A program made the position numbers and the translations under genes. A stretch of 64,000 bases of DNA from positions 5,928-69,927 of the forward strand of contig JAZKJH010000004.1 of NCBI GenBank assembly GCA_040384485.1, in the 5' to 3' direction. The notes under the pieces are model-generated. The model was not told where the DNA came from and did no database searches. It saw nothing but the letters and a program-made list of their open reading frames with translations. Of this stretch, positions 7,946 to 13,274 are shown piece by piece (within the stretch, counting starts at the first letter, position 1; the number at the start of each line of letters is the position of its first letter). Source of the stretch: Patescibacteria group bacterium. GTDB taxonomy: Bacteria > Patescibacteriota > Minisyncoccia > Phycocordibacterales > DATDWN01.

Positions 7946-8836
7946 CTAATTATCTAGTGCAATCTGAGCCATCTCAATGATGGCTTTTTTTGTTTTAGCT
8001 CCTGCTAGATGGCAACTCCGATGACAAAAAGTTGCTCCTTCCACACCACAAATGACCTCCAATTCTTTATCATTCTTTCCTCCCCACTCTGATGGAAAAT
8101 ATTTTCTGTATACAAAGTCTTCTTTATTATCTCTCACAAACATTGCTCTCCAATCATTCTCTTGGATGCCAGGAAATACCACGAGCAACGGTTCTGTATA
8201 TTTTTTTAAGGTTTCGTTGTAGGGACAGTATTTGTCCAGAACAATAAGTCTTTTGTCGGGAGTATTAGCGTAAAGTTCCTCAACAATATTCTTTGCTTTT
8301 ATTTTGCCTTGATTTCTAACTACTTCTCTTTTTATAACCCTTTTAGCCATGTTTGCCATATCTATGAAGGCCTCATCCCCATTAGCATCCTCTGTCCAGC
8401 TTGGATTGAATGCTTCAAAAACGTCAGTAATGTCGTACAACTGGACACTCTCCTGAACTGGTTTAGACACCTGGACTCCATTATCAATACAATCAATAAA
8501 TTGCACAAGTGAACTGTCTATTGAATCCGAGACTTCTTTGCTTCCAGATATTTGCTCTCCATACTTCTTCCATACCAAACCAAAAGATGCGTAAGGAACG
8601 CCATTGTCTCGAGTTCCAGCTCCGCCTACTTGGTGGTGGTCAAAAAGATTCTTGTCTGCATCATAAACACCTCCTACATCAACTACATAGTCCCCTTTTT
8701 CTATAACATCCTTATCTCTTGACCTCAAAATCTCAATCTCTTTGCCATCCAAAACCAACATTAACGTAGCCACAGCAAAAACATCATCGGTATGAAAGTG
8801 ACCACTATGCACAACTATCTTAATTTTATCTTGCAT
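7946..8836 (-). CDS. MYG1/UPF0160-family metal-dependent hydrolase
   Basis: N-terminal HSGHFHTDDV and DHHQ motifs diagnostic of the MYG1 family. Confidence 0.75.
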   Translation of the reverse strand: MQDKIKIVVHSGHFHTDDVFAVATLMLVLDGKEIEILRSRDKDVIEKGDYVVDVGGVYDADKNLFDHHQVGGAGTRDNGVPYASFGLVWKKYGEQISGSKEVSDSIDSSLVQFIDCIDNGVQVSKPVQESVQLYDITDVFEAFNPSWTEDANGDEAFIDMANMAKRVIKREVVRNQGKIKAKNIVEELYANTPDKRLIVLDKYCPYNETLKKYTEPLLVVFPGIQENDWRAMFVRDNKEDFVYRKYFPSEWGGKNDKELEVICGVEGATFCHRSCHLAGAKTKKAIIEMAQIALDN

Positions 8837-9407
8837 TATTAGATCTTAAGTACAGCAAAGATACGACTGCCATATATACAAATATAGTCAGTGACATAAA
8901 AGGTATGGTTATGTAACCGTACTCGAGCACATAAACCTTGGCACAATCGCCCCCTACTGAAACACAGTCTAATCCTGAAGAATTTATTCCCCAGTGTGCT
9001 AGGGATTGATAAAAAGCTATCGCAATGCCTATAAAGGTTAGTGGCAACATATACTTGATGACACTTCTGTTTCCTTTTAGCATTGCTATGAAAAAAACTA
9101 GAGCTTGTGGAAATAGTAATATTCTCTGTGCCCAACATAACTCACAAGGAGGAAAACCTACAATGTTTGAGTATGCCAAACTACCGACTACTGCACTTGC
9201 AGTAAGAGTAAACATTATTTGGAGAATGTACTTATTTATTAACTCCAAAACTTTATTTTTAAAAGTAGAATTAAATGCCATTCCCAACAATACTCCAACA
9301 AAAAGCAGGTTGGACAACAAGGTAAAAAATGCAATGACTGGAGTAATGCTTGTTTGTAAGAATTCAATCATATTATTCTGGTAACTGACAATTAGTCTTT
9401 TCAGCAA
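8826..9407 (-). CDS. Disulfide bond formation protein BdbC/DsbB family
   Basis: PCELCWAQRILLFP aligns with B. subtilis BdbC PCELCWYQRILMYP. A second Cys pair lies in the periplasmic loop (CVSVGGDC), followed by YITIPFMSL. Four TM segments. Confidence 0.8.
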   Translation of the reverse strand: MLKRLIVSYQNNMIEFLQTSITPVIAFFTLLSNLLFVGVLLGMAFNSTFKNKVLELINKYILQIMFTLTASAVVGSLAYSNIVGFPPCELCWAQRILLFPQALVFFIAMLKGNRSVIKYMLPLTFIGIAIAFYQSLAHWGINSSGLDCVSVGGDCAKVYVLEYGYITIPFMSLTIFVYMAVVSLLYLRSNNAR

Positions 9408-9756
9408 TCTGAGCTAGCTCTATTGTATTTCGAACTCTCTCAGTTGTAGTAGAACCTTCCACGATAAAGTCCCAGGTTGGATAAGAAACCACCCCAGCGT
9501 CTTTACATACCTGAAGCTGGCCCCTACTGTCGGGAGTGGAGCACTCAATATATGGCAAAAGCTTTGCTGATCTACCGAACATACCTTTCTGGTTCTGGCA
9601 ATGAGGGCACCAGAAGGCACCGTAGAACTTTGCACCGCTGTCTGTTACACACTGAGCAAAAGTGTCTAGTTTTCCTGGCTTAGCAGGGGCCTGAATAACA
9701 TACACAACCCCCGCAACAAACAGCACCGCTATAGCTATATAAATGTATTTTTTCAT
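9373..9756 (-). CDS. Secreted thioredoxin-like thiol-disulfide oxidoreductase (partner of BdbC)
   Basis: Signal/TM anchor then YGAFWCPHCQNQK, a WCxxC thioredoxin-fold motif as seen in VKOR/DsbB-associated Trx domains. Start moved to the ATG at 9756 (MKKYIYIAIAVLF). Confidence 0.65.
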   Translation of the reverse strand: MKKYIYIAIAVLFVAGVVYVIQAPAKPGKLDTFAQCVTDSGAKFYGAFWCPHCQNQKGMFGRSAKLLPYIECSTPDSRGQLQVCKDAGVVSYPTWDFIVEGSTTTERVRNTIELAQIAEKTNCQLPE

Positions 9757-9856
9757 AAATTTACTGTAATTATTATAAATCAAGATTAGCACAAAAACTG
9801 GTTTTTTTCTATTAAAAAAGCCTGGACAGTATGTGCGATTTGCACTTGTCCAGGCT

Positions 9857-10459
9857 TCAGATTACCACAAGATCTCGGTTCTTGAGTCTTTTTCTTTTTC
9901 GTCGCGGGAAGCTCTTCCACCTCCTAATTCTCCTGTCCTTTTTTAATTCCATCACGATATCTCTTCCGAGATTGTTGATGGCTTCCTCGGTACTGATGTG
10001 CTCCAGGGAAATAAGAACGTTAGCTTTCATGCCAAACATTCCTGTATCCAACCTGGTTACCTCACCCTTGATTTTTTGATTCAGAGATACATCAATAGAT
10101 GCGTCTGCACCCTCCCAAAAGACAAAAGCGTCCACACCATGCCAGTAATCCAACATGGTCCCCATAGCTAGGTAAATAGCTGGCCTGGACCTGACCCTTG
10201 ATCTCAAAATCCTTCGCGGGAGATGTTTCTCAACCGCGGCTAAGATTTTTTTGGCATACCCCCACCTAGGACTAGGATTGTAGGGGTCATAAACCTCCAG
10301 CTCACCTTCTTCGGTTTCGGTAATGAGTGGAGTATTCATTACTATCTCCAAACATTCATCATAGGGTCTGTAGTCTGGGATGTCTTCAAATTTGTCGTAA
10401 AAGCCGAAAACTCTTTGCTCGAACTGTAACCCTCTGGACACTCCTTGAAGAAATTCCAC
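9857..10459 (-). CDS. Hypothetical protein (200 aa), GC-elevated, with a GTG start and strong SD
   Basis: ORF with local GC about 45-50% versus about 38% for flanking core genes. AAGGAGG lies 6 nt upstream of the GTG start. Basic C-terminal tail (KKDRRIRRWKSFPRRKRKRLKNR). No recognisable domain. Confidence 0.5.
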   Translation of the reverse strand: MEFLQGVSRGLQFEQRVFGFYDKFEDIPDYRPYDECLEIVMNTPLITETEEGELEVYDPYNPSPRWGYAKKILAAVEKHLPRRILRSRVRSRPAIYLAMGTMLDYWHGVDAFVFWEGADASIDVSLNQKIKGEVTRLDTGMFGMKANVLISLEHISTEEAINNLGRDIVMELKKDRRIRRWKSFPRRKRKRLKNRDLVVI

Positions 10460-10588
10460 CGCAACCTCCTTTCTTTTCTAGTTCGAATATACTCTGTAAA
10501 AAAATCCCTGTCAACTTACCGATACAGTGTTTTGACATACTTGTTGCCTATACAATTTCAATATGCTATCTTTTTTATAGAGGTAAAA

Positions 10589-10780
10589 ATGGAAACCAAA
10601 TTACAAAGTGCTCTGGGGTCATATCTCAAAGACAACCCTGGAAGTGAGAGGATACTTGCTGATGATCTACAAGTTGCAGTCCCAACAATCAATCGTTGGA
10701 AAAATGGCACTGCCCGGCCTGGTCCTCGATTGACCCAAGTAATTATTGACCATCTCCAAAACAAAACAAAAAGAGGATGA
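10589..10780 (+). CDS. XRE-family helix-turn-helix transcriptional regulator (63 aa)
   Basis: HTH signature LADDLQVAVPTINRWKNGTARP. GAGGT SD lies 5 nt upstream of the ATG at 10589. Divergent from the 200-aa gene. Confidence 0.6.
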   Translation: METKLQSALGSYLKDNPGSERILADDLQVAVPTINRWKNGTARPGPRLTQVIIDHLQNKTKRG

Positions 10781-10796
10781 AATATCCTCTTTTTTC

Positions 10797-13274
10797 TTAT
10801 GCGCCGTGGCACTTCTTGTATTTTTTGCCTGAACCACAGTAACAGGGTTCATTACGTCCTATCTCACTTCCGTCTGGGGTAGTGTTAGTTTTTGAAGCTA
10901 CAGAAACTGGAGCCTCCTTTGTAACAGATTCTGCGGAATCTCTAGTTTCAACTAACTTTACTGGTTCATTGAAAATCTTTACTCCAGTTTGTATTTGAGA
11001 TACTGTTTTTATTATTTGCTCTTGTATAGCAGATTCCATTTCTTTAAACAGTTTCAGGCCTTCCTTTTTATACTCCACCAAAGGATCTCTTTGTCCATAA
11101 GCACGCAAGTTAACACTAGATCTCATGTAGTCCATAGTATCTAAATGCTCAACCCACAACATATCCATAGTTTGCAGAGCGACGCGTCTAGCCAAAGAAA
11201 TAAACTCTGTACCTAGGGCCATTTTTTCTTCTATAAGCTTTCTCTCATCCTCTGTAGCAACAGAAAGTATGCTGAATATATAATCCTTTACATCTTCATC
11301 TGTACCTACAAGTATCCCCCTCCTCCTCTCATAGAATATTTTTCTTTGAAAGTTTAAAACGTCGTCAAACTCTAAAACATGCTTTCTCGCATCAAAATTA
11401 AATCCTTCTATTTTCTCCTGAGCACTCTCGAGTGATCGAGTTATCATTTTATTTTCTATCGGTTCATCTTCTTTTAGACCAAGTTTGCCCATCATGTTTT
11501 TTAGGGTCGGACTAGCGAACACTCGCATCAGATGATCATCTAATGATACAAAAAACTGAGTCTCTCCAGGATCTCCTTGTCTTCCGGAACGCCCTCGAAG
11601 CTGGTTATCTATTCTTCGAGCATCATGCCTCTCTGTTCCCAAAACAAACAAACCGCCAAGAGACTTAACTTTTTCATAGTCTTCTAGTGAACCCGGATTA
11701 CCTCCCAGCTTCACATCCACACCTCGTCCTGCCATGTTTGTAGCGATAGTTACCGCACCCACTCTACCAGCCTGAGCCACTATCTCTCCTTCTCGCCCAT
11801 GGTTCTTAGCGTTCAAAATCTCATGAGGAACACCTTCTGTTCTCAAATATTCAGAAAGTAGCTCATTTTTTTCAATAGAAACCGTACCTATCAAGACCGG
11901 CTGACCGTTCTTGTGTCTTGCACTCACTTCCCGAGCAATAGCCTTAAACTTCCCTGCTTCAGACTGAAAAATCAAGTCGTTATGATCCTTTCTAGCAATA
12001 GGTCTGTTGGTTGTAATCTGAACAACTTTCAGTCCATATACTTTATAAAACTCCTCCTTAGAAGTCTCTGCGGTTCCGGTCATACCGGCTAGTTTTTTAT
12101 ACAACCTGAAATAATTTTGAAATGTAATAGACGCAAAAGTTTTTGATTCTTTTTGCACTGACACACCTTCCTTCGCTTCTATAGCTTGGTGCAAACCTTC
12201 TGACCATCGTCTCCCAGGCTGAAGTCGCCCAGTAAACTCATCTACCACAATTATTTCATTATCTTTCACTACATACTCTTTATCTTTATGGAATAAAGCC
12301 CGAGCTCTAACAGCAGTTTCCAGATGGTGCACATACTTAATACCTTTTTCTGTGTATATATTGTCTATACCCAGTAACTCCTCTGCTTTACTTATGCCTG
12401 AGTCAGTTAATGATATAGACTTAAATTTTTCGTCTACTGTGTAGTGCTCTCCACTTTCTAACTGACTACTGATTTTTGCAAAAGTACCATACAAATCCTC
12501 CGACTCAACAGTAGGTGCAGAGATGATGAGGGGGGTTCTTGCTTCGTCTATTAATATAGAGTCGATTTCGTCCACTATTGCATAAGCATATTCCCTCTGT
12601 CGCAATTTAGCTGAGTCGTATTCCAAATTATCTCTTAAGTAATCGAAACCAAACTCATTGTTAGTTCCATACGTGATATCTGCTTCATAGGCTTGCTTTC
12701 TTGTAACTGGTTTTAGAAAGTCTTCGATCACCTTGAAGGACGCAACTTCATCTCGAGTTTTATCTAGTTCCTTATGGGCAGGGTCATACAAAAAAGATTC
12801 ATCATGATTTATCACTCCGATAGACAATCCTAGGAAAGAATAAATCTCTCCCATCCATACAGCATCTCTTCGAGACAAATAGTCATTTACAGTAACAACA
12901 TGCACTCCGTTTCCAGTAAGTGCATTCAAATATACCGGTAGTGTTGCCACAAGAGTTTTTCCCTCTCCTGTTCTCATCTCCCCAATCATTCCTTTATGTA
13001 AAACTATTCCACCCAAAAGTTGTACATCAAAATGCCTTTCATTCCTACATCTCTTGCCGGCTTCTCTAACAACAGCATAAGCTTCAGGCAACAAGTCATC
13101 CAAACTCTCCCCATTTTGAAGCCTTTTTTTAAATTCAGTAGTTTTTTCTTTAAGTTCAGAGTCAGATAATGCCGAAATAGCGCTCTCCTTAGCGTTTATT
13201 TGATCCACTATAGGCTGGTACTCCTTCAATATCTTGTCGGATTCCTTGCCAAAAATTTTATCTAAAAATGACAT
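10797..13274 (-). CDS. secA: Preprotein translocase ATPase SecA
   Basis: DEAD-like motor motifs (GEGKT, DEID, TNMAGRGVD), the preprotein-binding region, and the C-terminal zinc finger CYCGSGKKYKKCHG. Start is probably MSFLDKIFG at 13274, since the track start at 13316 overlaps a TATAAT box. Confidence 0.9.
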   Translation of the reverse strand: MSFLDKIFGKESDKILKEYQPIVDQINAKESAISALSDSELKEKTTEFKKRLQNGESLDDLLPEAYAVVREAGKRCRNERHFDVQLLGGIVLHKGMIGEMRTGEGKTLVATLPVYLNALTGNGVHVVTVNDYLSRRDAVWMGEIYSFLGLSIGVINHDESFLYDPAHKELDKTRDEVASFKVIEDFLKPVTRKQAYEADITYGTNNEFGFDYLRDNLEYDSAKLRQREYAYAIVDEIDSILIDEARTPLIISAPTVESEDLYGTFAKISSQLESGEHYTVDEKFKSISLTDSGISKAEELLGIDNIYTEKGIKYVHHLETAVRARALFHKDKEYVVKDNEIIVVDEFTGRLQPGRRWSEGLHQAIEAKEGVSVQKESKTFASITFQNYFRLYKKLAGMTGTAETSKEEFYKVYGLKVVQITTNRPIARKDHNDLIFQSEAGKFKAIAREVSARHKNGQPVLIGTVSIEKNELLSEYLRTEGVPHEILNAKNHGREGEIVAQAGRVGAVTIATNMAGRGVDVKLGGNPGSLEDYEKVKSLGGLFVLGTERHDARRIDNQLRGRSGRQGDPGETQFFVSLDDHLMRVFASPTLKNMMGKLGLKEDEPIENKMITRSLESAQEKIEGFNFDARKHVLEFDDVLNFQRKIFYERRRGILVGTDEDVKDYIFSILSVATEDERKLIEEKMALGTEFISLARRVALQTMDMLWVEHLDTMDYMRSSVNLRAYGQRDPLVEYKKEGLKLFKEMESAIQEQIIKTVSQIQTGVKIFNEPVKLVETRDSAESVTKEAPVSVASKTNTTPDGSEIGRNEPCYCGSGKKYKKCHGA

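Follow-up and report, generated by a model that had tools for sequence, protein, structure and literature searches.

Two divergent genes occupy the central part of this locus, which lies in a window of 64,000 nucleotides (the whole stretch of DNA analysed). One encodes a 200-aa protein, here termed FAM200, and the other is a small XRE-like open reading frame. Their coordinates and those of the neighbouring genes are given in Table 1.

Table 1. Features of the FAM200 locus (window coordinates)
Feature	Position	Strand	Comments
DsbB-family gene	8826-9407		same side of FAM200 as the Trx-like gene
Trx-like gene	9373-9792		adjoins FAM200 on the side opposite secA
FAM200 CDS	9857..10459	(-)	ORF, 200 aa, 23.5 kDa; GTG start
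XRE-like ORF	10589..10780	(+)	63 aa; ATG start; GAGGT at 10580-10584
secA	stop at 10797		other side of the FAM200/XRE-like pair

The sequence features given in the initial annotation are all found here. The two genes face away from each other, and the gap between them, put at about 130 bp, measures 129 bp. The GAGGT ahead of the XRE-like ORF is present, and disulfide-bond genes (Trx-like and DsbB-family) flank the pair on one side and secA on the other. FAM200 has the GTG start and strong Shine-Dalgarno sequence that were noted, the latter as AAAGGAGGT at positions 10464-10472, where AGGAGG is spaced 5 nt from the GTG. The GTG start is corroborated by the orthologue at locus L001 (82% identical), since an ATG is found there at the same aligned position. 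A promoter of its own and a strong Shine-Dalgarno sequence accompany FAM200 in all nine related loci whose flanks were read, and a terminator is found at the gene in most of these nine.

The FAM200 protein consists of an acidic core followed by a basic C-terminal helix. The very basic tail reported earlier, RRIRRWKSFPRRKRKRLKNR, was found; residues 158–200 have a pI of 11.7 and residues 1–157 a pI of 5.1. The family comprises 58 clusters (representatives) at 50% identity and displays conserved motifs (alignment A3), and the dN/dS ratio of FAM200 relative to the L001 orthologue is 0.14. An AF2 model (pLDDT 85.9) gave no significant structural matches; among its weak matches, PD-(D/E)XK nucleases are enriched. 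Any function given to FAM200 here is one that we infer.

The comparison covered 13 distinct related loci. In all 13, FAM200 is found within a Trx-DsbB-MYG1-DivIC-Grx block, at protein identities that go down to 26%. In 12 of the loci Trx-DsbB follows immediately downstream of FAM200, and in the thirteenth FAM200 is shifted by a few kb and is still inside the block. In the related loci where secA is on the contig and the upstream side can be read, FAM200 is directly downstream of secA (10/10).

The base composition of the locus had been described as GC-elevated. The elevation is real and moderate, but it is confined to the 200-aa coding sequence. The FAM200 CDS has 44.9% GC, which places it in the top 2% of 603-nt windows (mean 37.0%, sd 3.8%), and its GC3 of 0.493 is the joint highest among 55 ORFs (mean 0.332, sd 0.056). 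The full 924-nt region has 42.9% GC and falls in the top 5% of windows, whereas the XRE-like ORF has an ordinary GC3 of 0.31. In every locus, FAM200 has the highest GC content among the genes of the block, and GC elevation is a family trait. Because raised GC and GC3 values run through FAM200 in all genomes examined, the proposed origin from the same donor as an ssrA island is not needed.

The divergence of FAM200 also sets it apart from its neighbours. Relative to L001, FAM200 has a pS of 0.45, whereas the flanks are saturated. Relative to L008, FAM200 shows 36–38% identity and SecA 89%. The history of FAM200 thus conflicts with that of its flanks. Such discordance fits a horizontal exchange of alleles at a site that itself stays fixed; it does not fit the insertion of an island.

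The question of a foreign islet thus has two sides. Conservation of FAM200 in its block in 13 of 13 distinct related loci rejects an inserted islet, and its position is conserved across the lineage, although its composition is atypical. What stands of the islet proposal, besides atypical composition and discordant divergence, is the gain of a segment of 281 bp that bears the XRE-like ORF. This segment is missing in both closest relatives; the XRE-like gene is absent from all 13 related loci and is known in this genome only. It is a recent, genome-specific insertion and a lineage-specific gain.

The designation of this ORF as an XRE HTH regulator calls for a caveat. The ORF does contain VAVPTINRWKNGTARP, but the match to Pfam HTH_3 is sub-threshold, scoring 15.9 bits where 23 are required (E=0.014). 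Matches to three PHROG repressor families have E values of about 0.002, and no homologue of the ORF was found. It should be pointed out that the 'XRE' label corresponds to sub-threshold matches only and is best taken as putative.

A regulator-controlled toxin or abortive-infection effector was also suggested, and this reading is not supported. The 200-aa protein has no match in PADLOC, PHROG or Pfam. The related loci have no XRE-like gene, and therefore the 200-aa protein is maintained without it, which argues against a two-gene module. A prophage remnant is not supported either, as the 200-aa protein has no PHROG or other phage match.

Overall, the initial interpretation is partly supported. 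FAM200 is a member of an unannotated, fast-evolving Patescibacteria protein family, which occupies this position next to the disulfide-bond genes throughout a clade of Patescibacteria.
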